Source: Candidatus Margulisiibacteriota bacterium (lineage in GTDB: Bacteria; Margulisbacteria; WOR-1; O2-12-FULL-45-9). From it: 57,626 bases of DNA. Position numbers and translations under genes: made by a program. Shown in pieces: positions 4,901 to 29,140 of the stretch. The DNA lies in NCBI GenBank assembly GCA_034723395.1, contig JAYEOW010000050.1:1-57626 (forward strand), read 5' to 3'. Numbering within the stretch: the first letter of the stretch is position 1; the number at the start of each line of letters is the position of its first letter. Under the pieces are notes generated by a model that was not told where the DNA came from, made no database searches, and saw nothing but the letters and a program-made list of their open reading frames with translations.

Positions 4901-5372
4901 AAAAGAAATAATTTATAAGATATTTTTGATTATTTGTTTTGCAGTGGCCATGGGATATTTTGAGGCTGTGGTTGTTGTCTATCTCCGTGCTGCCATGCAA
5001 AAGCTCCCCTATATTCTGGAGCCAATTGCGCAAGTAACCCAAAAACTTGCCAAAGAACCTCTTTATCTTATTGAGCAATTTCGAGAAGCAGCTACGATTA
5101 TAATGTTAGCTGCTTTTGCTATTTTGACGGGTAAGAACTTGTGGGAAAGATTTGCCAATTTCCTGCTTACCCTTGGAATCTGGGATATTGTTTACTATAT
5201 CTCTTTATATGTTATTCTCCGCTGGCCGCCGTCTATTTTTACTGAAGACGTTCTATTTCTGATTCCTGTTCCCTGGAAAGGGCCGGTCATCGCGCCGGTT
5301 CTAGTGTCAACTCTAATGATAATCTCGGCTTTTGTTATTTTGAAAAGCAAAGTATGGGATAAGGAGATTTAA
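4893..5372 (+). CDS. Multi-TM membrane protein
   Basis: EAVVVVYLR, EQFREAAT, WDIVYY, LFLIPVPW motifs of an uncharacterised membrane family; start moved to ATG 4893. Confidence 0.75.
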   Translation: MNKKEIIYKIFLIICFAVAMGYFEAVVVVYLRAAMQKLPYILEPIAQVTQKLAKEPLYLIEQFREAATIIMLAAFAILTGKNLWERFANFLLTLGIWDIVYYISLYVILRWPPSIFTEDVLFLIPVPWKGPVIAPVLVSTLMIISAFVILKSKVWDKEI

Positions 5373-8105: not shown

Positions 8106-8165
8106 AAATCCGCTCCCAGCTCGCACCGAGCTTGTCGAAGGGTTTTTTAATTCAAATCCCCGCCC

Positions 8166-8198
8166 AAAAAAGAGCAACCGCCAGGTTAAGCGGTTGCT
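8166..8198 (-). terminator. Rho-independent terminator outside left inverted repeat
   Basis: Stem AGCAACCGC/GCGGTTGCT, 8-nt loop, U-tract on minus strand. Confidence 0.6.
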
Positions 8199-8250
8199 TA
8201 AAGGTATAATTCTCCGAAGTCCTCCGAAGCTCCGGAGGAGCGAAGGAGGA

Positions 8251-8362
8251 TGGAGTCCGCGTTTCCCCAACGAACTATTAAATTAATCTTACCGAACAAT
8301 ATTCATGGCTGTAAGAAGATGAATCTCAAAGATCCTAGATAGTCCTTCGACTCTCCCTCGAC
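8251..8362 (+). repeat. Left long inverted repeat (IR-L)
   Basis: Reverse complement of 27124-27235; first 55 nt identical, 104/112 overall by manual alignment. Confidence 0.95.
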
Positions 8363-9329
8363 TCGCTGCGCTCGCTCGGGACAAGGTGCGGTCTGCCCGG
8401 GGAATCCCGCACAATCCCTATATAGTTATATATTGTACACACACTGCGCTGCGTAGCGTCCTATTGCGGCTTCTGGCTTTGTGTTTATATATAAGGCAAT
8501 GATCCTGCTCCTGCTGCTTTGTTCTATTGTGCTTTAAATAAGGGGCAGGTTTTTCACATTAAAAACAGATCATACATTAAGGGTGAGATCCTAATCTTGA
8601 GGCTGGTTTTCAGCTTAAGCCCAGACACAAATAAATGAGCCTGGAGCGGGTTCTACTGTTCTGCTTAAGACCACACACACCCTAAGACAAACAGCTCGAT
8701 CAAAGGGCAGAATTACTTAAGGCAAAATCAGGACCAGCTTCTCATCATACACAAGACCAAAAAATTGGAGCCAGTTTTTCCGCTTCGTTGTTTGCTTTGT
8801 GGCCTGCGGTTAATTTGTGGTGGTAAGCATAGGGGGTGGTTTTTTAAGGAAAAGACAAGGAAAAAAGAGGGTGTTAAAATTCCCGAATTCCCAGATACAA
8901 GGCACCAAGGACAAGACTAAGGAACAGGCCGCTTCGCGCCCCCACCACCACCGCCTCCCAACCCCTTCCGGAAAGCCCTGAGATTATTATTCCCATCATC
9001 ATTTTTTAAAAACCCCGCCACCACCTCGAATTAAAGACACTTTGTACGACCTGCGTGCTGCTCACCAGCTCGCAGCACAGCAGGTCTTCATTGATCCATA
9101 TTTGGGGCAATAATGTTCCCCAACTTTTTCTTCATCGTTTACCGGATCTTTCAAGCTGCCATACCCGGGTGGGTGTTTTATGGATACTTGTCGTTCAATT
9201 GGCCTTATTATCTATATAAAATCACGATACAAGCAAAAAGCCCTATTGTACGGGTTTTCCGCACTATCTGGGGGGATAGACCGCATTATCAGCCGGAAAT
9301 CCCGCATAATGACATATTTATGATATATA

Positions 9330-9357
9330 TTGCAAAAATCCTTTATAGGAGTATAAT
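9330..9357 (+). promoter_or_regulatory. sigma70-type promoter for thermonuclease operon
   Basis: TTGCAA-16 nt-TATAAT. Confidence 0.55.
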
Positions 9358-9369
9358 AACGCCAGAAAC

Positions 9370-9858
9370 ATGACAAAAAGATCATTGGCTATTTTCTGTC
9401 TACTTTTTATAGCCAGTTTGTTCATAACTGGTTTTGGGAAACCTCCTGCTTCAGCGCCTGAAAATATTTACCTTGTAACGAGAGTCATTGATGGCGATAC
9501 GATCGAATTAGCCAATGGCGAAAGAGTAAGATATATTGGTATTGATACGCCAGAAACAAAACATCCCGAAAAACCGGTTCAATACTTCGGCAAAGAAGCC
9601 TATGAAGCAAACAAGAAGCTGGTAGAAGGGAAAAAAGTCAGGCTCGAGTTTGACGTTCAAAAAAGAGATAAATATGGAAGGATACTCGCCTATGTCTATG
9701 TTGATAATATTTTTGTAAATGCATGGTTGGTTGAAAATGGATATGCCTATGCAGCCACTTATCCACCAAATGTTAAGTATCAGGAATCGTTTTTAAAGCT
9801 GCAAAAGGAAGCCAGAAAAAATAAAAGAAGATTATGGAGAGGAGGCCAAAACCAATGA
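9370..9858 (+). CDS. Thermonuclease (SNase family), exported
   Basis: VIDGDT, VRYIGIDTPE, DKYGRILAYV motifs; N-terminal signal. Confidence 0.92.
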   Translation: MTKRSLAIFCLLFIASLFITGFGKPPASAPENIYLVTRVIDGDTIELANGERVRYIGIDTPETKHPEKPVQYFGKEAYEANKKLVEGKKVRLEFDVQKRDKYGRILAYVYVDNIFVNAWLVENGYAYAATYPPNVKYQESFLKLQKEARKNKRRLWRGGQNQ

Positions 9859-10226
9859 GTATTTGGGATCTTTTTAAATTATTCAAAGCAGCACATCACA
9901 GCAATCTTGGTGGCACTTATGCAGAACAGGGTAAACTTGAAGATGCAATTAGAGAATATAAAATGGCATTAGAAATAAATCGAAACTTGGCTGAGACTCA
10001 TTTTGGCTTAGGTGCAGTCTATCAAATGCAGGGCAAATTTGAAGAAGCTATTACTCAATATAAAGTCGGATTGGAAATAAAGCCCGATGATGCTCAAGCA
10101 CATTTTAATCTTGGCCAAATATATAAAGAATTAAATAACGAATCTGAGGCTCAAGAAGAGTTTAATCAAGCTAAGAAAATAGATCCAGATATTATTGGGA
10201 AAGCTTTGAAAGAATTAGGTCAATAA
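9855..10226 (+). CDS. TPR-repeat protein
   Basis: Three TPR units (HSNLG, HFGLG, HFNLG); start moved to ATG 9855. Confidence 0.85.
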   Translation: MSIWDLFKLFKAAHHSNLGGTYAEQGKLEDAIREYKMALEINRNLAETHFGLGAVYQMQGKFEEAITQYKVGLEIKPDDAQAHFNLGQIYKELNNESEAQEEFNQAKKIDPDIIGKALKELGQ

Positions 10227-10270
10227 TGAAATAAAATGAAGCAAGATATAAAAACAACAATAATTATCAT
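10226..10270 (+). repeat. Diverged duplicate of the 5' end of the DUF6804-like gene
   Basis: atgaaataaaatgaagcaagatataaaaacaacaataattatcat vs atgaatccaatgaaacaaaacataaaaacaataataattaccat at 11167-11210. Confidence 0.75.
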
Positions 10271-10294
10271 ATCCTGGGATAGGAGGCAAGTTGA

Positions 10295-11170
10295 ATGAAA
10301 AAGGCAGATTATATTGGCATTGTTGGAGGTATACTAATAGCATCAATTGTAATTGCATTAGCAAAAGAAATTGGTCTTATATTAGGTTTTGTCCCTGCCG
10401 TTTTACTTGTCTTGGGGGGATATTGGCTTACTAAAACAATAGCAAATAGAATAATTAGCGATAAGGAAGAACCAATAGGACCTGTTATAAAAGAAGAAGA
10501 AGAAGAAATGTCACAAGATGTGAAAGATGCTTTGAATAATATGGCTTTAAAAACTGAGGAACTCAAGAGAAAACTAAATAAAGAGCCAAAAGAAAACATT
10601 TGGTCGAAATTTAAAGGGAAACCCAATAAAAAAGGGCTTTTAAAAGGGAAAGCAACTTTTTTAATGCCTCTTTTAGTTGAAAATAGTATTGGGTTGGCTT
10701 CTTTCATTACAGATTATTCTAAAATCCAAGGAAAAGAAAAAATTTTAGTATGGGAATCTTTTGCGTTTTTCTTACATCTTGTAGAAAGAATCAGCTTAGA
10801 ATATCTTAATCCTGAGGATAGTGAGTATTTTTGCAAGGAATTAATAGATTTAATAGCAATAGATAATATTGCCAATTATCTAAAGCAAGGTAGAGATCCC
10901 ACAAAAATAGCTAAAATGAAAGAGGATTCAAAAAATTATTTGACATCAAGATGGTTATCAACTAAAGCAGAATACTTTGAATTTAGCAATCTGCTTCCGG
11001 CTAATCCACGAGAAGGGTTTGCGGATTCCCTATTTTGGCATTTTGGTTCTAAAATAACAGAAATTTTACTCGGCCATCCTGAAGATGCGGTAATCTGTTT
11101 TGCAGTATTGATATGTTGTACTAAAAGCTATATATCATTGCAATTGCACAATCTTTTTAGAGAAGAATGA
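10295..11170 (+). CDS. Hypothetical membrane-anchored protein
   Basis: 291-aa ORF, AGGAGG SD, two N-terminal TMs. Confidence 0.75.
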   Translation: MKKADYIGIVGGILIASIVIALAKEIGLILGFVPAVLLVLGGYWLTKTIANRIISDKEEPIGPVIKEEEEEMSQDVKDALNNMALKTEELKRKLNKEPKENIWSKFKGKPNKKGLLKGKATFLMPLLVENSIGLASFITDYSKIQGKEKILVWESFAFFLHLVERISLEYLNPEDSEYFCKELIDLIAIDNIANYLKQGRDPTKIAKMKEDSKNYLTSRWLSTKAEYFEFSNLLPANPREGFADSLFWHFGSKITEILLGHPEDAVICFAVLICCTKSYISLQLHNLFREE

Positions 11171-11490
11171 ATCCAATGAAACAAAACATAAAAACAATAA
11201 TAATTACCATTGTCGCAATTCTAGCTTTAATTCTACCTGTTTTCACAAAACTGCCCTATAACTATTTCGTAATCCTCCGCTGGTTTATTTGCATCCTTGC
11301 TCTTTATTATGTGTACTTATTCTACACAATTAGAAAATTTGGTCTTTTATGGCTCATGGCAATAATAGCTATTCTCTTTAATCCAATCGCAAAATTTTAT
11401 TTTAGAAAAGAAACTTGGTTAATTATTGATTTGGTTGTTGCAGCAGTTTTCGGATTTAATTTGTTTTATCTAAATAAAATAAGAAAATAA
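11167..11490 (+). CDS. Small membrane protein, DUF6804-like
   Basis: LPY.YF..LRW, ILFNPI and W..ID motifs. Confidence 0.7.
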   Translation: MNPMKQNIKTIIITIVAILALILPVFTKLPYNYFVILRWFICILALYYVYLFYTIRKFGLLWLMAIIAILFNPIAKFYFRKETWLIIDLVVAAVFGFNLFYLNKIRK

Positions 11491-11499
11491 GGAGAACAT

Positions 11500-12405
11500 A
11501 TGAGAATCCGATCGTTCATAGTTTTTGTTTTAATTGCTGCTATTTGCATGTATTTTTGGGATAACTTAGGATTTATCATTGCTATTCCTGTGGCAATTTT
11601 TATCAATGTTCTAATTAGCACTTTTGAGGCGATGAATTATTGCAATAAATCCAAAAAAGAGTATGATTCCATGATTTCTGACGGTTGTTCTAAAGAAGAC
11701 GCATTAATGAAAATTTCAAAAAAGAGCCATCCCGAATTGGGCGAAAAGATCCATTCAGAGATCATAAACAGATTTAATGACATCCATCTTCTTACCAATT
11801 TTATCAAAGGTGCTTTGCCGAACAAAAAAATTACTGATGATTATGCTTTGGATATCTTATATCATACGACGATTCGTGATTATGGAGGAGGTAGATGCAG
11901 GGTTATTACTGATTGGGCTAAATATGTTCCTAGTTCGGCTGAAGAAAAGATTGATGATAAATACTCATATTTATTTTCGAGGGGCAGATGGAAGGAGCTT
12001 GGAGAAAACGTTCTCAAGAAGATAGTTGAGAATTTCGAAGGAATAGAAGATAAGAAGTTTGTCGAATTTGTTCAATTATCGGAGCATTATAAATTATTGG
12101 AAAATAATTTCTTATCTCTTGCTCAAATGAGTAAGGATCTGTCTCATTTGCTTTCTCTTATGGCAACTACGATGCAGAATTGTGGTGGTAAAATAGTGGA
12201 GCAGTATGAGAAGAATAATGATACGGATTATTTGAAAGCAGGTATGTCTTGTTATTATATTTCTACAGTATTAAACAAAAACCATTTAACTGGATATGTT
12301 TCTTTATCCGGCGCTTTAGCCATTGAAGGGGAGAAGGACAAGGCGATAAATACTTTGGAAAAACTCAAAGAAAGATATTTAGCTCTACAAAAAAAACAGA
12401 GATAA
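11500..12405 (+). CDS. Hypothetical membrane-anchored protein, probably frameshifted (natural end 12490)
   Basis: 301-aa ORF; A8 run at 12389-12396 shifts into a frame open until TAA at 12488-12490. Confidence 0.7.
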   Translation: MRIRSFIVFVLIAAICMYFWDNLGFIIAIPVAIFINVLISTFEAMNYCNKSKKEYDSMISDGCSKEDALMKISKKSHPELGEKIHSEIINRFNDIHLLTNFIKGALPNKKITDDYALDILYHTTIRDYGGGRCRVITDWAKYVPSSAEEKIDDKYSYLFSRGRWKELGENVLKKIVENFEGIEDKKFVEFVQLSEHYKLLENNFLSLAQMSKDLSHLLSLMATTMQNCGGKIVEQYEKNNDTDYLKAGMSCYYISTVLNKNHLTGYVSLSGALAIEGEKDKAINTLEKLKERYLALQKKQR

Positions 12406-12490
12406 ATTAGCAACTTATGATAGTGTAATGCTAGATATGTTTAGTGAATCTATGATTGATGAATTAATAGAAAATATTCAGGGTGCATAA

Positions 12491-12688
12491 ATGATAAAAA
12501 ATATTCTTCTCGCCATTATAATTTATTTTGCTATAGGCATTATTGTAGTTGCATTAGACTATTGGCGAAATCTACAAGAACCTGTTTATAGTCAGCCTCA
12601 ATATGTTTATAAAAGAGATATGCGCATAATATTATTATGGGTAGTTTTCTGGCCTTTGCTCATTTATTTACGAATTCGTTATCGTTAA
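12491..12688 (+). CDS. Small two-TM protein
   Basis: 65 aa, two hydrophobic stretches, FWP motif. Confidence 0.65.
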   Translation: MIKNILLAIIIYFAIGIIVVALDYWRNLQEPVYSQPQYVYKRDMRIILLWVVFWPLLIYLRIRYR

Positions 12689-12734
12689 TTGAAAATAACG
12701 CACTCCAAGGAGAAAAGTAAAATAGACAACTATA

Positions 12735-14210
12735 ATGGCCGACCAAATCGAATATCTTAATCTAAATGAAATAAATGCCTTGCTCAAATCAATTGATGAT
12801 CTCCGCGACCGTGCGATAGTAACTCTCTTTTTGACCACCGGAGTATTTCTAAAGGAATTGTTCAACCTCAAGATAGATTCGATTAACTGGGAAAAGAAGA
12901 TGCTTGCCATCCCTGGCACCAGGAAGAGGGACATACCATTAAATGACCAGGCCTTTGATGCCCTTGCCAAGTGGTCAAAGGAGCGGCCGGATGTACGCTG
13001 TCCTTCTTTCTTTATAACCACCAAAGGTAAAGTAAAGGGGCTGTCTGACCGCAGTGTTGATCAAATCGTCAGGAAGTATGGCAAGAGGGCAGGGATTGAG
13101 AAAAAGGTCAATGCCCAGATACTCCGCAATACCTTTGCTGTCCGATTGTTTACTGAGGAGATCTCAGCAGACAAGGCAACTGCCATATTGGGTATAACTG
13201 ATGCCGAATCTATCAACCGCTATGCCCAGGCAGCTAAAAAGCCACCGCCCCAGCCACAGATTCCCAAACCTGAGCAGGTTGAACACCTTGATACTCGCCC
13301 CTGGTTCACCAAGCTTATATCCAGGTATTTCCCGACCAAGCCAAAACTGGCTAAGCCGGTTACCGAGATCAAGGGGCCGATTATTCCCAGCCCGGAAGAG
13401 GTTGTTTTTGGCAGAAAAGGTGTTATTGAAGATATAAAGTCTAGCCTTAATAAATTTGAATCAGTTCTGCTGATCGGTCCCATGGGCATTGGCAAGACCC
13501 ATATCCTGAGGCATATGATTAAGATATTGGGCCCCAACACTGTCTATATATCCTCCCCATCTCCTCTTAAAAACATGCTCACACAGATATGCGATAAATT
13601 AAACCCTGATTGGAAAAAGCAGATCAAGACTCGCGCTTCGACCAAGGAGATCGCCGATTTCATCATAAAGAGCAAGGGGGCTAAGCCTCCCATTCTTATT
13701 ATTGATAATCTGAATAACCTTAAGGCCCCGGATACCGATATTTTCTTGTCCCTTTTGGGAAGTTTCTCTATCCTTGCTGATACTGATGAAATGAAACCAA
13801 AGCTCAAGCAGATCTGGTATAAATTTAAGAGGATCGATCTTAATCCCTTAAGCGAAAATGCCGCAAAAGAGCTGATCAGGTATTTAACTCAAAATCTCTC
13901 TATCAGCGATTATGAGATGCTGGAAACAAGGATCATGACCTTATCAAACCGTTTACCTTTAGCCATTGTTGATATGGTCCATCAAGTCAGCCATCGGCCT
14001 GTGGTTACAAGGGACGCGGTCAGGGATGTTTACCACGAAGCGGGGATCAGGTATCGTGACTGGACAGCTGTGATTGTTGTGCTTTGGGGCATGGCGATCA
14101 TGTTTCGTTTTATTGCTTTAGGAACGCACAGTTTTGAAGGATATATCTTGGCCGGGTTTGGTACGGCATTTATGCTGGTGATGAGATTTTTTGTATTTAG
14201 AATGAGGTGA
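12735..14210 (+). CDS. Degenerate tyrosine-recombinase catalytic domain fused to P-loop NTPase and 2 TM helices
   Basis: RDRAI...TGVFLKEL, AQILRNTFA, ILGI...RY (XerC/D-like boxes with substitutions); Walker A GPMGIGKT; Walker B ILIIDN; hydrophobic C-terminus. Confidence 0.85.
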   Translation: MADQIEYLNLNEINALLKSIDDLRDRAIVTLFLTTGVFLKELFNLKIDSINWEKKMLAIPGTRKRDIPLNDQAFDALAKWSKERPDVRCPSFFITTKGKVKGLSDRSVDQIVRKYGKRAGIEKKVNAQILRNTFAVRLFTEEISADKATAILGITDAESINRYAQAAKKPPPQPQIPKPEQVEHLDTRPWFTKLISRYFPTKPKLAKPVTEIKGPIIPSPEEVVFGRKGVIEDIKSSLNKFESVLLIGPMGIGKTHILRHMIKILGPNTVYISSPSPLKNMLTQICDKLNPDWKKQIKTRASTKEIADFIIKSKGAKPPILIIDNLNNLKAPDTDIFLSLLGSFSILADTDEMKPKLKQIWYKFKRIDLNPLSENAAKELIRYLTQNLSISDYEMLETRIMTLSNRLPLAIVDMVHQVSHRPVVTRDAVRDVYHEAGIRYRDWTAVIVVLWGMAIMFRFIALGTHSFEGYILAGFGTAFMLVMRFFVFRMR

Positions 14211-14213
14211 GCG

Positions 14214-15491
14214 ATGAATACTTTTGGTTGTTATAAAAAGAAACAGCTAGATTCTGAGGTTTGCAAAGAATGCAACAAGAAAATAGATGATCAAATTAAT
14301 GAATTGGATCATGGGAAAATAAAAATCGTTGATCCTATATATGGATTAGTAGAAATTGATGATTATATTAAGATCATAATAGATACTTGTTATTTACAAA
14401 GATTGAGAAGGATAAAGCAACTTGGTTTTTCATATCTTACATTCCCAAATGCAACTCACACAAGATTTGAGCATTCTTTAGGCGTTTATTACCTGATTTA
14501 CCGAATATGTGAAAACGAAAATCATGCGATTGATAATAAGTTTAAATTCATATTAAAAACAGCGGCTATTTTGCATGATATAGGACATGGTCCTTTTTCA
14601 CATTTCTCCGAAGAACTTTCTGACCTTGTTCTGGGAAGGGAGCATAGCCACGAAAAAAGAGCAGGAAACATGATTAGTCCGGAATGGTCCTGTTTAAATA
14701 AGACATTAAAGAAGATTATGTCTAAATTGGGTTTTTCTGATAAAGATCAAGCTGATATCCTAAAAAAGATTCCTAACTATATATCAGGTTACAGCAAAGA
14801 TAGTCTATCTTTGTTGATTAATGGCCCAATCGATGTTGATAAAATGGATTACATAGTTAGAGATTCCTATCATACTGGGGTTCCTTTTGGGTTGGGGGTA
14901 GATTTGTTTTTTATTTGTGACAATATAAGATTTGATAAAGTCAAAAAGAACGGACATAAACAAATTATTTTTAATGAAAAAGCTGAAGCAGCAATTCTAA
15001 ATTTATTATATGCTTATGCAACTTCTTATCAAGCCATACATTATCATCATGTTAACATAATTGCTTCAGAGATGATTTTGAAAATATTTAATGATGTAGA
15101 TATTTCCAAAATATCAGATAATGACAAAACAAGCCTTTTTTGGACAGACGATTGCAATTTTTTAAATAGACTAGGAATGATTCTCTCGAAAAAAGCTCAA
15201 AAGAAACAATATCATGAGATTTATAAAATGTTTTTGCGTATAAATAATCGTTGTTTGCCTAAGCGGAAAAAGCAGGGAATAACGGATGTGGGCAAGAAAC
15301 TTGATTTTAACGAAAGACGTGCTGAGGAGAAAAAATCAGAAATTATTACTTGTTCGTCCTTAACAAAGAAGGTCAAAAATGTCGATAGGATTAGAGTGGT
15401 AAAAAGGGACGGGTCATTAAGAGAATTGTTGGGTTATGTAAAAGGAATAAAAGACAGATTTAGAAAAATTGTCTGGGAATGTTCTTTTTAA
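14214..15491 (+). CDS. HD-domain dNTP triphosphohydrolase (SAMHD1/YwfO-like)
   Basis: DPIYG, QRLRRIKQLG, HTRFEHSLG, LHDIGHGPFSH, DVDKMDY. Confidence 0.88.
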   Translation: MNTFGCYKKKQLDSEVCKECNKKIDDQINELDHGKIKIVDPIYGLVEIDDYIKIIIDTCYLQRLRRIKQLGFSYLTFPNATHTRFEHSLGVYYLIYRICENENHAIDNKFKFILKTAAILHDIGHGPFSHFSEELSDLVLGREHSHEKRAGNMISPEWSCLNKTLKKIMSKLGFSDKDQADILKKIPNYISGYSKDSLSLLINGPIDVDKMDYIVRDSYHTGVPFGLGVDLFFICDNIRFDKVKKNGHKQIIFNEKAEAAILNLLYAYATSYQAIHYHHVNIIASEMILKIFNDVDISKISDNDKTSLFWTDDCNFLNRLGMILSKKAQKKQYHEIYKMFLRINNRCLPKRKKQGITDVGKKLDFNERRAEEKKSEIITCSSLTKKVKNVDRIRVVKRDGSLRELLGYVKGIKDRFRKIVWECSF

Positions 15492-15506
15492 TTATGGATG
15501 AAATAA

Positions 15507-16829
15507 ATGCTAGCACCAACTCATAGCGTATTTGGAATATTTTTGACCCTGATTATCCTGGCGGTCTTCGGCGTCCAGTGGAGTCTCCACTGGACCATCA
15601 TCCTTTTTGCCATATTAGGGGCGGTCATGCCGGATATTGATCACCCCAAATCAATTATTGGCAAACTATTCTACTTTATCTCTGCCCCAATTGAGCGAAG
15701 ATACGGTCATCGCACTATAACCCATTCTTTAATTGGCTTGGCGATCTTTACGGTCATATTTGCCGTAATAATTGGCTTGATAAGCTTCCTGCCTCAAATC
15801 TCAGCCTGGGGCTGGACCGATCTTCCTATTCGCTGGATAGCCGCATTTTCGATCAGCTATTTTTCTCATCTGGTGCTTGATATGTTCAACCGTCGTGGCT
15901 CTCAGATGTTCTGGCCTGATCCTGGTAGGGATGTGATTCCCAGAAACCAAAGATTCAGGATTAAGTCTGGGTCGCGCACTGAGATTATTGTTTTTATAGT
16001 GCTCCTGGCTCTGATGTTTCTGGCTTTTCCTATTTCCAAGTACGGCCCGGCCAGTACTGTGCGTTGGCTTCTGGCAACTTCAGGCTCTGCCATTGAAGAA
16101 TTCAAAACCTCAGATACGGTTTCCTATCTGGAGTTCAAAGGTTATTTTAAAAACACAAAACAACCTGTCGAAGGCAGGGCTGAAATTCTCGGTGTTCAGA
16201 ACAAAAGATTAATTATCCTTTTAAAAGACGACGGACAAATATATACAATCAGCGATGAGTTGGCTTCTGATATTCTAGCCGAGAAAATGAGGGTTGAAAA
16301 AAGTAATAAGCCTCTTAAGGTTGAAAAAAGAGAGTTTAAAAATGAGGAACGGGGATATCTATTATCACAAGTCCCTGATGGCGCGCGAATTTCAGGAGTT
16401 ATTAACCTTCCAGCAGGCATGAACGTAACCATTCCTGAATCGCCGGGATTCTTTAAAGTATTCGAACAAAAAGGAGACGATCTTCATCTCAATTTTGCTA
16501 ATCGGGAAATGATCGAAAAGCTGGGTTTAACCGAACAGTTTGACCTCCAGAAGAAAAAAGATATGGTAGAACTTTCTGGCCTCGTGACCCGAGCCAGGAA
16601 GATTAGAAATGAGATTAGCGAAATACAAAGTAAAGATGGTTTAACTGAGCTTGGTCAGACGTTGCTTTTGGGCAAAGATAAAATTGAAAAACAAAATACA
16701 CGCCTAGCCGAGCTAAGAAGCCAGCTTGCTGATGTAAATCTAAAGATCGAGGAAGTTAATCTAAAGATAAAGTCCAGGAAGTTTGTATTTTCAGGAAGCG
16801 TCTATATTAGACAACGAGGAGGAAAATAA
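15507..16829 (+). CDS. YdjM-like membrane metal-dependent hydrolase with long soluble/coiled-coil C-terminus
   Basis: THS, PDIDHP, GHRTITHS, SHLVLD motifs among TMs. Confidence 0.8.
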   Translation: MLAPTHSVFGIFLTLIILAVFGVQWSLHWTIILFAILGAVMPDIDHPKSIIGKLFYFISAPIERRYGHRTITHSLIGLAIFTVIFAVIIGLISFLPQISAWGWTDLPIRWIAAFSISYFSHLVLDMFNRRGSQMFWPDPGRDVIPRNQRFRIKSGSRTEIIVFIVLLALMFLAFPISKYGPASTVRWLLATSGSAIEEFKTSDTVSYLEFKGYFKNTKQPVEGRAEILGVQNKRLIILLKDDGQIYTISDELASDILAEKMRVEKSNKPLKVEKREFKNEERGYLLSQVPDGARISGVINLPAGMNVTIPESPGFFKVFEQKGDDLHLNFANREMIEKLGLTEQFDLQKKKDMVELSGLVTRARKIRNEISEIQSKDGLTELGQTLLLGKDKIEKQNTRLAELRSQLADVNLKIEEVNLKIKSRKFVFSGSVYIRQRGGK

Positions 16830-16830
16830 G

Positions 16831-17361
16831 ATGAAAAGGTTTATTGCAGTGTTTCTGATAATTTTACATTCATTCGTCATTAGTCATTCGGCATTAGGAA
16901 TTGAAAGGGAGTATGTTCTCGGACCGTACGATATGTTAGAAGTCGAGATTATTAACCACCCGGAGCTAAAAACCAAACAAACGGTTACCCCTGACGGCCA
17001 GGCTTCGCTTCCGTTGCTGGGGGTTGTGTCAGTTGAGGGTAAAACTCTTAAAGGGCTGCATGATTTCCTTACCACAAACTACGCTGCTTATATCGAAAAA
17101 CCGCAATTAACGATTAATTTAACACCCAAACCCATCTATGTGATCCAGTATGATCTGAGAAAAGATACCTGGGAAGTTAAAAAGGCTACGTCGATTGATG
17201 AGGCTAAAGCCCTAACAGGGATTGAGCCAACTTTGGCTATTGAGCATGGGAATGTTTATAAGGTTAGTATGGGGAAGAAGGCGGATTGGTTGGAAGACAA
17301 CTGGTACAAAGTAATTACAGCCACGGCGGTTATGGCAGGTATCTACTCAACCTTGAAATAA
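16831..17361 (+). CDS. Polysaccharide export (Wza/Poly_export N-domain) family protein
   Basis: YVLGPYD.L, VTPDG..SLPLLG.V...GKT; signal peptide; GAGGAGG SD before ATG 16831. Confidence 0.8.
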   Translation: MKRFIAVFLIILHSFVISHSALGIEREYVLGPYDMLEVEIINHPELKTKQTVTPDGQASLPLLGVVSVEGKTLKGLHDFLTTNYAAYIEKPQLTINLTPKPIYVIQYDLRKDTWEVKKATSIDEAKALTGIEPTLAIEHGNVYKVSMGKKADWLEDNWYKVITATAVMAGIYSTLK

Positions 17362-17371
17362 GAAGATAATT

Positions 17372-17516
17372 GCTCGCCTTGAGCTTGTCGAAAGGCTTGC
17401 CCTGAGCCCTTCGATTCACTGCGTTCGCTCAGGACAAGCTCCGTCGAAGGGCTTGCCCCGAGCGAACGAACAAAGTGAGGGAGTCGAGGGGGGATTTATT
17501 CGACGTTGAAATAAAA
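17372..17516 (+). repeat. REP-like palindrome cluster and direct repeat copy B
   Basis: Three CCYGAGC...GTCGARGG-type units, one nested; 17421-17516 duplicates 1-108. Confidence 0.85.
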
Positions 17517-17698
17517 GGACGATTGCTTGTTCTGAACGAAGCCAGAGGTTGATTTTTTTGATATTGGGGCGTAGCATTAGGTAGAGCTTTAATAACTGAT
17601 CCAACATAATATGGTGATTTGTAAAACAAAAGCCGCTAGAAATAGCGGATTTTTTCGTTTTTGGTTAAAGGAAGCAAAATTTTAGAGAGGTGTTAAAA

Positions 17699-18844
17699 AT
17701 GGCTCAAAATACGATTAAATGTCCAAAATGTGGGGAAATAATTTCTATAGATGATGTTCTAACCCATGATATAGAAGATAGAGTAAAAAAAGAATTTGAA
17801 GCAAAGCAAAAGATACGAGAAAAAGAACTAGCTTCAAAGTTTATCAAAGAGGCAAGGGCCGAAGCTGAAAAAGAGCAACGAGAAAAAACAAATCTTTTAG
17901 AGGAACAGCTAAAGAGTAAGAATGCAAAATTAGATGATGCCATGAAAAAGGAAGTTGCTCTGCGCAGAGAAAAAATGAAGCTCGATGATGAGAAACGAGC
18001 TTTTGAAACCGAAAAGTTACGCCAATTGGAAGAAGCAAAAAAGACCATTGCTGAGGAAGCTGCCAAAAAAGCAGCAGAAGAACAGCAATATAATATTGCC
18101 CAATTAAAAAAGCAGCTGACAGATGCAACTAAGGCAAAAGATGAGCTTGCACGTAAGCTAGAGCAAGGGTCGCAGCAGACGCAGGGTGAGGTGTTGGAAT
18201 TAGAGTTGGAAGAATTATTGAAAGTAGAATTTCAGCAGGATGAAATTGTTCCTGTGCCCAAAGGCGTAACCGGTGCTGATATTATCCAAACCGTTATGAA
18301 TCGTTCTGGCCGGGAGTGTGGGAAAATTGTTTGGGAATCTAAAAAGACCAAGGCCTGGAGTGAGGGATGGGTGCAGAAGTTAAAAGATGACCAACGGGCG
18401 ATTAAGGCAGATATTGCTGTGCTTGTGTCAGTTACTTTGCCTGAGGGAGTAAATGGCTTTGTTTTTCGCAATAATATTTGGATTTGTGATGTTAAAACTT
18501 TTATCGCGTTAGCTACGACGCTGAGGATGAGCCTGGAAGCCGTAACCCGAGAAAGATCGATGTCTGTGGGCAAAAACGAAAAAATGGAAGTGCTTTATTC
18601 TTATTTAACTGGCGTAGAGTTTCGCCAAAGGGTAGAGGCAATTATTGAAGCTTTTTCGAATATGGATACAAGTTTAAAAAAAGAACGGATAGCTTATGAA
18701 AAAATATGGGCTGAGCGTGAGCAACAGCTTAAAAAAGTGATGAAAAGTACGATTGGTATGTATGGTGATATGAGCGGGTTAGTTACGCTTCCGCAGATAA
18801 AAACTTTGGAGTTGGGGGAGGGGAAAAGTCATAAAGATAGTTAG
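17699..18844 (+). CDS. DUF2130 domain protein
   Basis: IKCPKCG Zn ribbon, coiled coil, GSQQ.QGEVLE..LE, G.D and WESKKTK nuclease-like motifs. Confidence 0.85.
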   Translation: MAQNTIKCPKCGEIISIDDVLTHDIEDRVKKEFEAKQKIREKELASKFIKEARAEAEKEQREKTNLLEEQLKSKNAKLDDAMKKEVALRREKMKLDDEKRAFETEKLRQLEEAKKTIAEEAAKKAAEEQQYNIAQLKKQLTDATKAKDELARKLEQGSQQTQGEVLELELEELLKVEFQQDEIVPVPKGVTGADIIQTVMNRSGRECGKIVWESKKTKAWSEGWVQKLKDDQRAIKADIAVLVSVTLPEGVNGFVFRNNIWICDVKTFIALATTLRMSLEAVTRERSMSVGKNEKMEVLYSYLTGVEFRQRVEAIIEAFSNMDTSLKKERIAYEKIWAEREQQLKKVMKSTIGMYGDMSGLVTLPQIKTLELGEGKSHKDS

Positions 18845-20534
18845 GTTAACAATAAACAATTTTAGGGGTATAAATAAGTTTTCACAGAATTTATTCGATA
18901 AGGATAGTATTTATTTTGTTGGGAGGGGAGATACGGGAAAATCAACAATATTAGATGCGATCTCGCTTGTTTTTTCTCCAAATTCGTATTTACATTTTTA
19001 TGATAGTGATTTTTACAATAGTAACACTAATGATCCAATTGAGATTGAAGTATCTATAGTGGATTTCCCTCAGAAACTGATAACAGAGTTTAAGTATTTT
19101 TCTCATTTGAGAGTAATGGATAAGAATACTGGAAATATATATGATGATATTGAAGTTATTCAAGATATTCCAGATGACTTTGAGAAAGTATTAACGATAA
19201 AATTTGAAGTTAATAAAGACTTGGAAGCTAAGTGGTATGTTATAAGTGATCGACATGAGCCAGTTCAAATGTCACCAAGGGATAGAGGGAGTCTCAATGT
19301 TTATAAAATATCAGATTATATTGACAGGCACTTTTACTGGAGTAAAGGAAGTCCTTTGTATTCACTTTTATTAGATGATGAGGGGGCTGAGGATGTTGTT
19401 AAAGAAAATATTATTGTAGATGTAGTAAGGCAGGTAAAGCAGAAAATTGATGAATGTCCATTTGAAAGTTTTCAGAATGTGACGGCTAAAATCAAAACAC
19501 AGGTTTCAAATTATGGAATAAAAATAGATGATGTAAAAACCTCAATTGATTTTAAGGATATATCAATAAAAGAAGGCCAGGTTTGTTTGCATGATAAAAA
19601 CATTCCTTTTAGGCTAAAGGGTAAAGGGTCGAAAAGGTTAATATCAATTGCAATTCAGGCAGCCCTTGCGCAGAAGAGTGGGATAATTCTCGTGGATGAA
19701 ATAGAGCAAGGTTTAGAACCAGATAGGGTGAAGCAATTAATAAGAACGATTAAAGCTGCTGGACATGGCCAAATGTTTGTTACCACTCACTCGGTAGAAG
19801 CGATTACAGAAATCGATTGTTGTGAACTAGGTGTTTTAAAAAATGACAAAGGAAGTGTGTCTGTTAATTATCCCGATAAGGAGCTTCAGGGCGTCGTGAG
19901 GGCTTGTCCACAAGCTTTTTTTTCTAATAAAATTATTGTTTGTGAGGGAAACACTGAAGTTGGATTATGCAGAGCGTTGGATATCAATAGAAAAGCTAAC
20001 GATAAGGAATATATGGCTTTTTTGGGGTGTGTGTATATTTGTGGTATGGGGGACAACTTTCCCAATTATGCCTTAAAATTAAAATCGCTGGGATTCAATA
20101 CAGCAATTTTGTGTGATTCTGATAAAGATTATTTAAGCCATTCAAAGAAAGAATTGGCCGATAATGGTATTGAAATATATGATTGTGATAAAGAGAAATC
20201 CATAGAGAATCAATTGTTTTGTGATTTGCTATGGAAAGCAGTTGCTGAGTTGATAAAATATAGAGAAGAAACGGATGGGCATACCAAGAATGCAATAGCA
20301 CAGGCAGTTAAATCAAAATATGGGGCAAAATTTCCGGATCAATGGTTGGAAGATGACACTCTCAGAATGAGAACCGCAATAAGCGAAGCATCGGTCGTTA
20401 AGGGGAAAGAGTGGTTTAAAAGAATTGATCATGGGGAATTTCTTGGAAAAAAAATATTTGAGTATAAAGCAGAAATGCTTGAAAAGAGAATAGTAAGAAT
20501 GATGGATGATCTGTCGAAATGGATTGATGAATGA
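18831..20534 (+). CDS. gajA: Gabija GajA-like OLD-family ATPase/TOPRIM nuclease (needs ATA start at 18831)
   Basis: Frame open from ATA 18831: NFRGI, Walker A GRGDTGKST, Walker B LVDEIE, TTHS, TOPRIM CEG..E and DSD. Confidence 0.8.
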   Translation: MKIVRLTINNFRGINKFSQNLFDKDSIYFVGRGDTGKSTILDAISLVFSPNSYLHFYDSDFYNSNTNDPIEIEVSIVDFPQKLITEFKYFSHLRVMDKNTGNIYDDIEVIQDIPDDFEKVLTIKFEVNKDLEAKWYVISDRHEPVQMSPRDRGSLNVYKISDYIDRHFYWSKGSPLYSLLLDDEGAEDVVKENIIVDVVRQVKQKIDECPFESFQNVTAKIKTQVSNYGIKIDDVKTSIDFKDISIKEGQVCLHDKNIPFRLKGKGSKRLISIAIQAALAQKSGIILVDEIEQGLEPDRVKQLIRTIKAAGHGQMFVTTHSVEAITEIDCCELGVLKNDKGSVSVNYPDKELQGVVRACPQAFFSNKIIVCEGNTEVGLCRALDINRKANDKEYMAFLGCVYICGMGDNFPNYALKLKSLGFNTAILCDSDKDYLSHSKKELADNGIEIYDCDKEKSIENQLFCDLLWKAVAELIKYREETDGHTKNAIAQAVKSKYGAKFPDQWLEDDTLRMRTAISEASVVKGKEWFKRIDHGEFLGKKIFEYKAEMLEKRIVRMMDDLSKWIDE

Positions 20535-21947
20535 ATGGATTATCAAGATTTCGTTTTAAAGGAAAAAAGTCTTCTTGTTGCTCCGGCAGGATTTGGCAAA
20601 ACATATACTATAGCGAAATGTCTAGAATTCACACAGGGCAGACAACTTGTTTTGACTCATACGCAAGCGGGAGTAGCTTCGCTTAGGGAAAAGATTAAAT
20701 CAAACGGGATAGATCCAAGAAAATATCGCATTCAAACAATAATGAGTTATGCGCAGAAATATGTTAATGCGTTTTATGTTGGTAAAGATGTCCCTGATCA
20801 GGAGACAAAAGCATATTGGCCCTTTATTCTTGAAAAAGCAACTGCTCTACTACGATTAAAACTTATAACTGATATTATAAAGGCTACATATTGTGGGCTA
20901 TTTGTTGATGAATATCAGGATTGCACTATTTCACAACATAAATTTATAGCTTCGATATCATCTAATATGCCAACACACATATTAGGGGATCCACTTCAGG
21001 GAATATTTGATTTTAATAAAGAGAAACTTGTGATATTTGACGAAGATCTTAAGGATTATATTAAAAACAAAGTTCAATTGACTGAACCACAGAGGTGGAT
21101 GAGGGGGAATAATCTCCGCTTAGGAGAGTGTTTGCATGAGATTAGGGGGAAGTTGGAAAGACGGGAGAACCTTGACCTGGGGGAGTATGATTCAGTTATT
21201 GAGGTTGAAATTGCCGGAGAAAATTCTTCATATATATCTCATAAGAAAATCTGGGATTTAATTGATGGTGAAGATAGTCTACTGATATTACATCCTGATA
21301 GCTTCAGCATTGGTGCAAGATTGAGGATTACAAAAATATATAGGAACTTGATTTATCTAGTTGAGTCAATAGATAGTGGTGATTTCTATAAACTTGCAAA
21401 AATGCTTGACTCGATGTCTATACAAAATGTTGGGAACATTCTAAAAAAAATATCGTATAAGTTATTCAATAGTGGTGAGTTGGATAAGTGGTTTAGTGAA
21501 AGTCCAAAAAAGTATTTCAAAGATAAAACAGTAGATGCTGAGCAAAAAAAAGTTAAGCCTATAAGTGAATTGTTTGGAATATTAAAGGTAAAGACATCCT
21601 TTTCTCTGTTTTCAATGATTTTGCGAGAGATATATAGTCTTGCAAATAAAAAATGTTTCAGAAAGGAGCTGTTTTTTGATCTTTGTACGGCGTTAAACCA
21701 AGCTGATGAGAACACATCTGTTTATAATGCAATGAAAACATTGCGCAACCATAGGCGTATAATGGGGAGAAAAATATACGGAAAATGTATTGGCACAACA
21801 TTATTGACAAAAGGATTAGAGGCTGATGTTGTTGTTGTCTTAGATGCCCATAAGTTTAAGGATCCAAAAAATATTTATGTTGCATTGACGAGGGCCTCGA
21901 AAAAGTTGGTTGTTTATTCTAGAGATAGGGTGTTGTCTCCTTATTAA
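20535..21947 (+). CDS. gajB: Gabija GajB-like UvrD helicase
   Basis: APAGFGKT, FVDEYQD, GDPLQ, TKGLE, YVALTRA; abuts gajA stop. Confidence 0.82.
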   Translation: MDYQDFVLKEKSLLVAPAGFGKTYTIAKCLEFTQGRQLVLTHTQAGVASLREKIKSNGIDPRKYRIQTIMSYAQKYVNAFYVGKDVPDQETKAYWPFILEKATALLRLKLITDIIKATYCGLFVDEYQDCTISQHKFIASISSNMPTHILGDPLQGIFDFNKEKLVIFDEDLKDYIKNKVQLTEPQRWMRGNNLRLGECLHEIRGKLERRENLDLGEYDSVIEVEIAGENSSYISHKKIWDLIDGEDSLLILHPDSFSIGARLRITKIYRNLIYLVESIDSGDFYKLAKMLDSMSIQNVGNILKKISYKLFNSGELDKWFSESPKKYFKDKTVDAEQKKVKPISELFGILKVKTSFSLFSMILREIYSLANKKCFRKELFFDLCTALNQADENTSVYNAMKTLRNHRRIMGRKIYGKCIGTTLLTKGLEADVVVVLDAHKFKDPKNIYVALTRASKKLVVYSRDRVLSPY

Positions 21948-22021
21948 AAATTAACAAAAAAACTAGCCGCCGTTAAGACGGGGTTGTAACAATATGGTTT
22001 TGCGAGGGGAGGTGAAATACT

Positions 22022-22249
22022 ATGGAGCGATATAAAAATCTAAGTGGAAAATCTGGCGTTGCTGCTTTTGAAAATGGAGAGGACAATATTATTGTCCAAT
22101 TTAAAGATGGAGGAAAGTATCTTTATAATAATGCAGTGACTGGAGCAGGGCATATTGTTGAGATGAAGAAACTTGCTATTAGTGGAAGAGGCTTAAACAG
22201 CTATATTAATAGGCATGTTAGAAAAGCATATGCCTCAAAATTAAACTAG
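22022..22249 (+). CDS. Small KTSC-like protein
   Basis: SG..A......I.VQFKDG..YLY...G.GLNSYIN pattern; GGAGGTG SD. Confidence 0.65.
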   Translation: MERYKNLSGKSGVAAFENGEDNIIVQFKDGGKYLYNNAVTGAGHIVEMKKLAISGRGLNSYINRHVRKAYASKLN

Positions 22250-22284
22250 AAATTATCAAAAAAGATATCTAAGGATGGTCAATT

Positions 22285-22605: not shown

Positions 22606-22608
22606 AAA

Positions 22609-22656
22609 GCATGTTAAAAAAACGTATGCCGAAAAATTAAGCTGGATGTTATCAAA
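22609..22656 (+). repeat. Diverged duplicate of the 3' end of the KTSC-like gene
   Basis: gcatgttaaaaaaacgtatgccgaaaaattaagctggatgttatcaaa vs 22213-22260 gcatgttagaaaagcatatgcctcaaaattaaactagaaattatcaaa. Confidence 0.8.
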
Positions 22657-22701
22657 CCAAATAACTGGTTGAATGAAGATGTGATTGGGAGAAGGGATAA
22701 A

Positions 22702-24192: not shown

Positions 24193-24292
24193 TCTCGCAC
24201 CACCATCTTTCTCTGTTAATGGAATCATAAGCTTCTTTAGTTGAAGATAGCTTGCCCTATACATACTCGAAGTGTAGAATTTTAAAATCAAC

Positions 24293-25552: not shown

Positions 25553-25558
25553 AGCTTT

Positions 25559-27097: not shown

Positions 27098-27131
27098 GTC
27101 CCGAGCCTGGTTCCCCCGAGCTTGTCGAGGG
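27098..27131 (+). repeat. 34-bp nested REP-like unit, identical copy at 28530-28563
   Basis: GTCCCGAGCCTGGTTCCCCCGAGCTTGTCGAGGG in both places. Confidence 0.9.
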
Positions 27132-27235
27132 AGAGTCGAAGGGTTATCTTGGAGCCTTAAGATTCATCTTCTTACAACCGTGAATATTGTTCGGTAAGAT
27201 TAATTTAATAGTTCGTTGGGGAAACGCGGACTCCA
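27124..27235 (-). repeat. Right long inverted repeat (IR-R)
   Basis: Reverse complement of 8251-8362. Confidence 0.95.
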
Positions 27236-28572: not shown

Positions 28573-28726
28573 TTAAATAGTGCTAGGACACGATAAGGTG
28601 GGCAAAAGGCAGAGAGTAGGCGTGATGTGTTTATCTAAGATAATACCTTTTAGGCCTCAAGGCCTATCGGCCTTTTCTGCCTTTGGCCTGGTTGAATAAA
28701 GGCCGCTAGGCCGAAAAGGTTAACAC

Positions 28727-29140
28727 TGGAGCTGGCGGGAGTCGAACCCGCGTCCGAAAAGGCAGCGTAAGAGTTACTACGAGCGTAGCTTCATTTTAAA
28801 GTTCGCCCGGGACTTAACCCGAAGCAGGGCAGTTCCCGCGCTATCCGATATAAGGCTTAGTAACCGGCCAAACGGAAAAGGCCGATTAGGCAGTCGAAAA
28901 AATAACGTCTTGACTGAGCCTTTCGACAAAACTCAGGAGACGAGCTGCTTATATATTAAGCAGCGTAAGCCGGTGCCGGTGAGAGAACAGACGAATCTGT
29001 CCATGCCCACTGAACATCAGCCATCGCATTTTTAACGTCTGCGTTTATACGTTTGCCGCCGCTGATTAACGAGGTAAAGGCGACATCCTCGGCTCGCAAC
29101 TTTTACTACCACAACTTCCCGTCAAAACCCTTGCAGCCCC
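28727..29140 (-). ncRNA. ssrA: tmRNA, about 414 nt
   Basis: 5' GGGGCTG pairs with 3' CAGCTCC-A (G.U pair); T-arm GCGGGTTCGACTCCCGC; tag ORF ending YAA-stop in a hairpin; downstream of smpB. Confidence 0.95.

Follow-up and report, generated by a model that had tools for sequence, protein, structure and literature searches.

The stretch analysed here (the window, 57,626 nucleotides) covers positions 1-57,626 of the forward strand of contig JAYEOW010000050.1, from the assembly GCA_034723395.1 of a Candidatus Margulisiibacteriota bacterium (GTDB WOR-1; O2-12-FULL-45-9). At 12735..14210 (+) it carries a gene, P0001, which starts at an ATG and encodes 491 amino acids (aa) in an uninterrupted frame. 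Its predicted product combines a XerA-like tyrosine recombinase domain with a degenerate active site (hereafter the head), an AAA+ ATPase module and a pair of C-terminal helices. This composition, proposed by a first-pass annotation made from the sequence alone, is confirmed by Pfam, by alignment with Xer proteins and by an AlphaFold2 model, and the motifs quoted in support of it (TGVFLKEL, QILRN, LGI, GPMGIGKT, ILIIDN and Tyr163) are all present in the translation. The first frame of the opposite strand, the sole one translated, is riddled with stops, and a chance open reading frame (ORF) can be considered excluded because hundreds of full-length homologues exist.

Architecture of P0001

In Pfam, residues 7-168 match Phage_integrase (PF00589, E 2.5e-22, 79.9 bits for a cut-off of 27.1). 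P-loop matches follow with AAA_22 (244-335, 1.4e-7), AAA_16 (224-341, 3e-7) and AAA (244-329, 1.6e-6), the P-loop AAA families together spanning residues 224-355, and weak STAND-type matches appear in Pfam and NCBIfam (nSTAND3 0.0013, Avs4 0.01). The top NCBIfam model is archaeal XerA (E 1.3e-29), and P0001 stays below the curated equivalog cut-offs of XerA (103.6 bits for 220), XerC (63 for 335), XerD (66 for 330) and integron integrase (27.4 for 265). The AlphaFold2 model, built on 48 sequences (mean predicted local distance difference test, pLDDT, 82.1; predicted template modelling score, pTM, 0.61), places the recombinase fold at residues 1-170, followed by an unstructured linker, a compact AAA+ domain (224-430) and two terminal helices (444-462 and 467-490).

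Structure alignment and active-site columns delimit the XerA-like catalytic fold to residues 5-168 (12747..13238, +). The linker that follows (residues 169-222, 13239..13400, +) is Pro-rich and poorly conserved, with pLDDT below 50 at residues 172-183 and 210-213. The AAA+ module with its lid, recognised by fold Z scores and motif conservation, occupies residues 223-432 (13401..14030, +) and bears the Walker A GPMGIGKT and the Walker B ILIIDN. The two-helix hairpin (residues 444-490, 14064..14204, +) is the best conserved part of the protein, and an alignment of P0001 with 47 relatives shows R458, F459, L462, G463, E468 and Y470 to be invariant. Its hydrophobicity and the modelled helices suggest that it serves as a membrane anchor. 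In the model it comes directly after the AAA+ module, and no repeat domain is found by Pfam in P0001.

The folds were compared by VIA-align on Foldseek candidates. Residues 1-174 superimpose on XerA (5hxy_B, Z 21.7, root mean square deviation 2.2 over 171 residues; 4a8e, Z 19.0). Residues 214-438 superimpose on Cdc6/Orc1 (2qby_B, 2v1u_A and 1fnn_A, with Z 18.0, 17.7 and 17.6), on TnsC (Z 17.3 for 7plh_A, and 16.8), on MuB (Z 16.1 for 8xvc_A, and 16.0) and on plant NLR proteins, from Z 16.9 for the NRC3 resistosome down to 16.4 for NRC resistosomes; the matches to Cdc6/Orc1, TnsC and MuB (Z 18.0-16.0) cover about 215-221 residues.

Active site and conservation of the recombinase head

The host genome also encodes two ordinary Xer recombinases. 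Aligned with them, P0001 has Phe38 at the position of Arg-I, Gln128 at His-II, Arg131 at Arg-II, Ile154 at His-III and Tyr163 at the nucleophile, so that it has lost three canonical residues out of six (Arg-I, His-II and His-III) and retains Arg-II and Tyr. The claim that only the second Arg and the Tyr remain holds for Arg131 and Tyr163. It does not extend to the column of the hairpin Lys of the recombinase fold, occupied by Arg63, which is not discriminating because catalytically intact relatives also carry R or K there. As the first-pass annotation had noted, P0001 is devoid of the N-terminal core-binding domain of about 100 residues seen in the Xer paralogues of its host; an intact relative, P0193, likewise starts at the catalytic domain. 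P0001 thus belongs with tyrosine recombinases by fold and by profile, and departs from them by its catalytic set, its missing core-binding domain and its curated scores.

To situate this degeneracy, 232 sequences of 430-620 aa were aligned, from which five non-members were dropped (two tandem integrases and three proteins without head). The 227 kept reflect the searches made and are not a census. The full R..H-x-x-R..H..Y set is found in 90 of them and part of it is missing in 137, F-R-Q-R-N-I-Y being the commonest pattern among the latter (n=68). Grouping by identity only gave one cluster of 133, which holds P0001 and has no full set, and another of 80, in which 79 sequences have it. This average-linkage clustering on overall identity is unrooted and does not by itself establish a single ancient loss.

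Throughout the cluster of 133, composed of Margulisbacteria sequences, Arg-I, His-II and His-III are replaced, mostly by Phe, Gln and Ile, whereas Arg-II and Tyr stay; Arg-I always gives way to an aromatic or other non-basic residue. The substitutions are therefore shared by all members and not recent. In the alignment of P0001 with its 47 relatives, no Arg occurs at the Arg-I column in any row shown, L130-R131 and G153 are invariant, and I154 and Y163 nearly so.

Mean pairwise identity in the close clade amounts to 0.55 for the dead head, 0.48 for the AAA+ module, 0.58 for the hairpin and 0.34 for the linker. The dead head, with higher conservation than the ATPase, is thus, to judge from these alignments, a functional domain. 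A repurposed role in DNA binding, already put forward in the first-pass annotation, is the natural reading of this constraint.

The Walker A Lys is present in 95% of the 137 degenerate-type and 98% of the 90 intact-type sequences, and the Walker B Asp in 100% and 74%, respectively. The residue after this Asp is Asn in 83% of the former and Asp in 34% of the latter. P0001 has the core-plus-lid fold and the Walker A of AAA+ proteins and lacks the catalytic Walker B Glu; in its close clade no conserved Glu occupies this place. Without this residue, the module is more likely to be a switch operated by ATP binding than a motor or a pump. What had been described simply as an NTPase can be refined, on motifs and modelled fold, to a probable DNA-associated, switch-type AAA+ of the ORC/Cdc6-TnsC kind.

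Distribution of the family

A word-indexed search with P0001 returned 200 relatives. Among the 120 of them listed, the great majority are 478-570 aa long and align over 95-100% of the query with 42-94% identity; where named, they belong to Margulisbacteria lineages, and they come from many independent assemblies and sources. The same architecture is also encoded on closed chromosomes of 1.67 and 1.77 Mb. An exhaustive search of representative sequences gave 6795 matches at E <= 0.001, 325 at E <= 1e-10 and 56 at E <= 1e-30. It added full-length relatives with 22-29% identity, as well as proteins of about 290 aa that align to residues ~224-489 only.

The full-length ones among these distant relatives share the three-part architecture of P0001 and have an intact catalytic set. 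The architecture was therefore not invented for sensing: the idea of a recombinase repurposed in this way suits the degenerate clade, but not the architecture as such, which exists in catalytically intact form. The opinion that no described family has this architecture also needs qualification. We found no description of the architecture or of the gene set in the literature covered, subscription-only papers lying outside it, but the family is large in public databases, where it is labelled just 'site-specific integrase', and plasmids are its typical carriers.

Virus collections yielded no full-length relative. IMG/VR gave zero relatives with one alignment (A1) and, with a second (A2), only ordinary integrases matching residues ~3-205; among phage records, none covers 80% of P0193. 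No model of a known anti-phage system in PADLOC-DB 2.0 was matched by P0001 or its conserved partners: the best result for P0001 is mad8 (3e-4, 18.4 bits) on the P-loop stretch, LmuB reaches 5.9e-4 on the coiled coil of the YdjM-family partner described below, and nothing was obtained for the Poly_export partner.

Conserved partner genes

Partners were surveyed in 31 loci from species-representative genomes. Downstream of the ATPase gene, a YdjM-family protein of 430-480 aa (YdjM-long) is encoded in 22 of the 31 loci and a Poly_export protein of about 180 aa in 15, which bears out the conservation of YdjM- and Wza-like neighbours that the first-pass annotation had proposed to examine. Loci without them are mostly truncated by contig ends, YdjM being missing despite several kb of downstream sequence in L001, L010 and L020. 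In several loci, among them L006, L007, L014, L017, L018 and L019, the YdjM gene starts a few bases past the ATPase gene.

In the window YdjM-long lies at 15507..16829 (+). It is composed of a membrane metallohydrolase domain with five helices (residues 1-180; Pfam YdjM PF04307, E 3.2e-30, 105.3 bits for a cut-off of 29) and of a beta domain with a helical hairpin (181-440). Across 28 sequences of both clades, H6, D43, D45, H68, R69, T70, T72, H73, S74, H121 and D125 are invariant. In the model (pLDDT 83.1), five membrane helices lead to a beta domain at 204-331, after which come a long helical hairpin at 343-423 and a closing strand. Two loops rich in Lys and Arg (46-74 and 127-155) bear the ligands, and the C-terminal domain comes after five helices, which suggests that the active site faces the cytoplasm and that the C-terminal domain is periplasmic. 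The His/Asp ligands may resemble those of P1 nuclease or phospholipase C. Foldseek gave no match for YdjM-long at E <= 0.001, MacA appearing at E 0.3, and its profile found nothing beyond coiled-coil noise among PDB sequences.

The second partner (16831..17361, +) is a small Wza-like protein with a signal peptide, a Poly_export domain (Pfam, E 1.5e-19, 70.4 bits for a cut-off of 28), a second small domain and a conserved C-terminal hydrophobic helix. It matches TIGR03027 pepcterm_export at E 5.4e-14, with 52.2 bits against a cut-off of 180.

Two other genes adjoin this set in the window. An HD-domain phosphohydrolase of 425 aa (14214..15491, +; Pfam HD, E 7e-13) separates P0001 from YdjM-long. 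By BLASTP, none of the 31 related loci encodes a homologue of this protein, which is thus variable cargo between two conserved genes and not part of the core. Upstream, a secreted staphylococcal-nuclease homologue (9370..9858, +; Pfam SNase, E 1.5e-30) is a possible accessory partner. An SNase gene precedes the ATPase gene in three of the 31 loci (L003, L005 and L010), overlapping it in the last two.

YdjM-long follows the ATPase gene in three settings: Margulisbacteria, Bacteroidota and gammaproteobacterial plasmids. In each of them a small secreted protein is encoded nearby; it is Wza-like in Margulisbacteria and TolC-like in Bacteroidota, while the one of the gammaproteobacterial plasmids falls into no recognised family.

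Plasmid relatives

A scan of metagenomes with seven intact-type sequences yielded 79 loci, with the ATPase ORF detected in 62. YdjM-long comes after the ATPase gene in 48 of these 62. The recurrent gene set also includes C1, a secreted TolC-like protein of about 218 aa encoded in 56 loci, and a replication gene, for a primase-helicase in 24 loci or for a Rep3 initiator in 14. A small lipoprotein, a ParE-type toxin whose small neighbour we read as its antitoxin, and sometimes ParA complete it. One C1 member passes the Pfam cut-off for OEP (26.0 bits for 22), the protein of the Flavobacterium plasmid pA5BP1 remaining below it (20.3), and Atlas structure matches of C1 to TolC-named clusters have template modelling scores of 0.62-0.66.

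Overlapping ends, or the presence of more than one unit, mark 17 contigs from 16 distinct elements, whose periods range from 7.1 to 14.1 kb. Three of them, L135, L136 and L121, hold more than one unit of a single circular element (periods of 8164, 9547 and 9639 nucleotides (nt)), so that counting genes contig by contig exaggerates their copy number. By construction, all 17 circular contigs contain the ATPase gene. C1 and YdjM-long are also found in 17/17, the primase-helicase in 14/17 with Rep3 or other initiators elsewhere, and ParA in 2/17. Among hidden Markov models of the backbone genes C1, C3, C7, C4 and C13 searched beside the Margulisbacteria copies, only C3 gave a match, a weak one in L012.

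Relatives also reside on plasmids of isolates. In the Bacteroidota Flavobacterium sp. (pA5BP1, 14.4 kb), Spirosoma taeanense (pTS) and Haliscomenobacter hydrossis (pHALHY01), a 'site-specific integrase' of about 500 aa adjoins a 'metal-dependent hydrolase'; plasmids of Flammeovirga and Thiospirochaeta were matched too. Intact-type relatives are hallmark genes of the 7-14 kb circular plasmid-like contigs and of these Bacteroidota isolate plasmids. Plasmids of three Nitrosococcus species and of one Methylobacter encode the ATPase-hairpin only, without recombinase domain. In the two inspected, N. oceani plasmid A and the Methylobacter plasmid, the gene for a secreted protein of 217-279 aa comes first, then the ATPase-hairpin and then YdjM. 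In the former, a MazF-type toxin-antitoxin pair (L197:6156-6696) sits between the ATPase-hairpin gene and YdjM; the junction between the conserved genes thus accepts insertions outside Margulisbacteria too.

The chromosomal lineage of Margulisbacteria

The gene is present in 29 of 146 genomes of the phylum (21 of 72 of high quality), with 1-4 matches each, some of them broken by stops; the host genome of the window has one copy. Genes between or beside the three conserved genes belong to Pfam families that are largely of defence or mobile-element type. In other loci this cargo includes Schlafen AlbA_2 with HATPase_c_4, AbiEi/AbiEii, DUF4062, HNH, DUF559, type I restriction-modification and patatin families.

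In L001 a 65-nt copy of the 3' end of the ATPase gene, 86% identical, comes after cargo, and in L005 two more partial copies of this end follow successive cargo blocks. The 3'-end copies lie at L001:7995-8059 and 11123-11187 and at L005:3608-3670 and 4740-4934. The extra copies correspond to the last ~21 codons of the gene (~65 codons in one case) and all extend to a stop codon; two short ones (copy 2 of L001 and copy 2 of L005) start sharply at the I-L-A-G-F-G codons. Such copies, found in two of the 31 loci only and nowhere else in the window, look like the footprint of site-specific insertion at an attachment-site-like sequence in the 3' end of the gene. No integrase family was recognised among the cargo ORFs scanned in L001 and L005. 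Genomic islands usually keep their integrase beside a tRNA gene. In one genome, two paralogous copies of the ATPase gene each have a tRNA gene about 0.5 kb upstream (tRNA-Ser, L024:7437-7524; tRNA-Glu, L025:7431-7505), and no direct repeats derived from tRNA or transfer-messenger RNA (tmRNA) genes were found within the fetched flanks. On these sequence features, the module itself looks like an insertion hotspot.

Genomic surroundings in the window

From position 1 to 28700 the G+C content is 0.32-0.46 per 1-kb bin (mean about 0.38), after which core genes show 0.44-0.55. This low-G+C stretch reads as a genomic island whose left end would lie beyond the contig. At the border between island and core is a tmRNA gene (28724..29140, -; Rfam RF00023, 149.8 bits, and ARAGORN), followed by SmpB (29845-30309, -).

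Within the island, a 117-nt inverted repeat (left arm 8251..8367, 91% complementary to the right arm 27119..27235), whose long part has only these two copies in the genome, brackets a segment of 19 kb (8251-27235) containing the module, a Gabija pair and a restriction-modification set. In eight other loci, the module is not flanked by long inverted repeats. The Gabija pair consists of GajA (19059-20534; PADLOC GajA, E 1.1e-125) and a UvrD-like GajB (20535-21947). The GajA ORF, with a GTG start, aligns to positions 78-568 of the 570 of the profile, the N-terminal ~77 residues falling outside the called ORF. Two restriction-type sets are encoded as well: at 24293-26797 Vsr, an EcoO109I-like endonuclease and a MerR-fused C5 methylase, and at 1297-3522 an EcoRI-like methylase with a GmrSD_N+HNH protein.

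Several smaller features were also noted. Just inside the right arm, a 68-codon stop-to-stop frame without ATG, GTG or TTG start (26836-27042, +) has a translation that resembles a helix-turn-helix, excisionase-like protein. Four GC-rich copies of a repetitive extragenic palindrome (REP)-like sequence are present (8119-8145, 17372-17398, 27109-27135 and 28541-28567); 27098-27131 and 28530-28563 are 100% identical over 34 nt, and short related pieces occur on other contigs. The 1.26 kb between the EamA-like and nuclease genes (8106-9369) contains no gene-like ORF, and an Rfam search of this interval at gathering thresholds gave nothing. Between the right arm and the tmRNA gene, a protein with HATPase_c and DUF4325 (STAS-like) domains is encoded at 27363-28424 (-).

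Relation to known systems

The individual folds of P0001 are familiar. With XerA, XerC and XerD it shares the catalytic-domain fold, with Arg-II and the Tyr nucleophile in place; it differs from them by the absence of the core-binding domain, by the replacement of Arg-I, His-II and His-III, by its score below the XerA cut-off and by the fusion of the head to an AAA+ module and a membrane hairpin. The AAA+ fold (residues 214-438; Pfam AAA_22/AAA_16) is that of ORC/Cdc6 and TnsC/MuB/TniB, but no winged-helix domain follows the lid. Like TnsB-TnsC or MuA-MuB, P0001 pairs a DNA-breaking-and-joining fold with an AAA+ regulator. Unlike TnsC or MuB, it is a single polypeptide anchored in the membrane, and its partner fold is a tyrosine recombinase and not a DDE transposase. 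The association of a membrane-anchored, DNA-dependent ATPase with a Xer-type recombinase recalls, in concept only, FtsK-XerCD. FtsK, however, is an N-terminally anchored RecA-fold translocase, whereas P0001 is a C-terminally anchored AAA+ without catalytic Glu and with a dead recombinase site.

Envelope-associated ATPases offer other comparisons. GspA/ExeA and the PEP-CTERM ATPase also tie a cytoplasmic AAA_22-type domain to the inner membrane, and P0001 has a weak match to TIGR03015 pepcterm_ATPase (E 0.0016, 17.9 bits for a cut-off of 324.5); the module is nevertheless devoid of a periplasmic peptidoglycan-binding domain and of polysaccharide genes. The three predicted locations, the Poly_export or TolC-like outer partner and the beta domain and hairpin of YdjM-long echo tripartite envelope systems. 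In contrast to these, no ABC, RND or MFS transporter is involved, the 'adaptor' is fused to a YdjM metallohydrolase, and its likeness to adaptors is not statistically distinct from that of any helical hairpin. Finally, the switch-type P-loop module with a G-L-P-L-A-like helix recalls STAND/NLR proteins (Avs and others), with the Z scores to NRC resistosomes given above, but these fold scores tie with ORC/TnsC, no C-terminal repeat sensor is present and no PADLOC family corresponds. As an assembly, the module matches no system in the libraries or literature searched.

Possible functions of the module

Our preferred reading, still a tentative one, is that P0001 is the inner-membrane, DNA-facing subunit of a conserved, plasmid-derived module handling DNA at the envelope, its head being now a pure DNA binder. 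At the inner membrane face the protein, when holding ATP, would bind DNA through its head and AAA+ module and form oligomers on it, and the hairpin would dock this DNA-bound assembly onto YdjM-long. The active-site loops of the latter would be cytoplasmic, while its beta domain and helical hairpin would cross the periplasm to the small outer-membrane-channel-like protein. The module may in this way tie the DNA of its carrier element to an envelope-spanning complex, either for hand-over out of the cell or for inheritance. Strand exchange would be an optional extra useful to a plasmid, which the chromosomal lineage may have dropped while keeping DNA recognition.

Two features of the family speak for this reading. 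The ATPase, YdjM-long and small secreted protein (the trio) persist while replication genes change, which argues for a function in self-propagation, by DNA hand-over or anchoring, rather than for swappable cargo. In addition, heads that are active, dead or absent are found on the same ATPase-hairpin, and strand exchange is thus likely to be accessory. The first-pass annotation had left the choice between defence and tethering of DNA for export; the evidence leans slightly to the latter, and no known defence family matches.

Several points weigh against this proposal. The lack of the catalytic Glu makes a DNA pump unlikely, and the DNA binding of the head is read from fold and conservation. The hairpin of YdjM-long scores Z 9.3 with LipC and 9.2 with HlyD, tied with unrelated hairpins, so that its modelled resemblance to periplasmic adaptors lacks significance. 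Homology of the outer partner does not extend from one lineage to another: comparing C1 by hhalign with the upstream proteins of the gammaproteobacterial plasmids gave a probability of 0.1%, and BLASTP nothing. All matched plasmid records are typed as non-mobilizable in PLSDB (8/8 and 9/9), and no relaxase or type IV secretion genes were seen in the regions looked at. The chromosomal copies, moreover, sit in defence-rich surroundings, which would rather suit an immune function.

Defence or exclusion is the alternative that we consider most seriously, while holding it to be somewhat unlikely. The head and AAA+ module would sense foreign DNA or recombination intermediates at the membrane, oligomerise and activate YdjM-long as an effector acting against incoming DNA or the membrane, and plasmids and islands would carry the module as a benefit or for exclusion. 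Such a role would fit the patchy, multi-copy spread in the phylum (29/146 genomes, with some copies broken) and the location of the window copy in a low-G+C island together with Gabija, two restriction-modification sets and a GmrSD-like gene, as well as the defence-type genes between and beside the module in other loci. Switch-type ATPases are also found in STAND/NLR immunity (Z 16.9 to the NRC3 resistosome), and modular immune ATPases typically have an N-terminal head that varies or is missing. Defence genes next to the module nevertheless count for little, as it seems to be an insertion hotspot in its own right. The PADLOC matches remain at P-loop level (mad8) or on the coiled coil (LmuB), the persistence of the trio in small plasmids while the replicon changes is backbone behaviour, and a secreted outer-membrane-channel-like partner is, to our knowledge, unusual among defence systems.

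A role in plasmid maintenance appears improbable. Here the head would resolve multimers, as plasmid tyrosine recombinases classically do (Cre/loxP, Xer/cer), while the membrane ATPase and YdjM-long would hold copies at the envelope for inheritance, in a single-protein counterpart of FtsK-activated XerCD; in Margulisbacteria the copies would have integrated and been retained as remnants for some different reason. In Haliscomenobacter pHALHY01 and in the Methylobacter plasmid a few kb separate the genes from the replication initiator, and the scarcity of ParA on the circular contigs (2/17) is in keeping with this idea. On the other hand, multimer resolution requires neither a metallohydrolase nor a secreted channel-like protein, the gammaproteobacterial versions have no recombinase domain, and the dead-site chromosomal copies are strongly constrained, unlike a remnant.

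It is very improbable that the head is still a recombinase with a non-canonical site, or recruits one, and captures cassettes at the 3' end of its own gene in an integron-like manner. The 3'-end copies after cargo in L001 (65 nt, 86% identical) and L005, their short forms beginning at I-L-A-G-F-G and all running to a stop codon, would be explained in this way, as would the absence of an integrase family among the cargo ORFs scanned in these two loci; the tRNA genes upstream in L024 and L025 and the retained Arg-II and Tyr point in the same direction. Yet Arg-I is replaced across the whole cluster, and we know of no characterised tyrosine recombinase or type IB topoisomerase that does without both arginines. 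The extra copies concern 2/31 loci and are absent from the window, no tRNA-derived repeats were found, and an integrase outside the fetched flanks could be responsible. As for a recently decayed integrase, a fusion artefact or an assembly chimera without function, which the missing catalytic residues and nothing else would favour, its chances are practically nil: it is refuted by the architecture shared at full length by the great majority of the relatives listed, in independent assemblies, on closed chromosomes and on isolate plasmids, by substitutions common to the clade and not scattered, and by a head more conserved than the ATPase.

An extended form of the preferred proposal, which we regard as doubtful, would make the trio an unrecognised envelope-spanning DNA-handling apparatus serving as self-propagation module of a large, undescribed, multi-phylum family of small plasmids, and having become in Margulisbacteria a chromosomal, chemistry-free platform for defence cassettes at the 3' end of the ATPase gene.

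Should the module move or anchor DNA, it would represent a new minimal route of plasmid inheritance or spread, at work in Bacteroidota, Gammaproteobacteria and candidate phyla on replicons currently classed by PLSDB as 'non-mobilizable'. A role in defence would instead make it a new membrane-based system whose DNA sensor derives from a recombinase. The natural series of active, dead and missing heads, with the same ATPase-hairpin and the same YdjM partner, probes what a recombinase fold does after catalysis has been lost. The locus also places the long form of YdjM, an uncharacterised family, in a genomic context for the first time, and isolate plasmids such as Flavobacterium pA5BP1 make the module directly testable.

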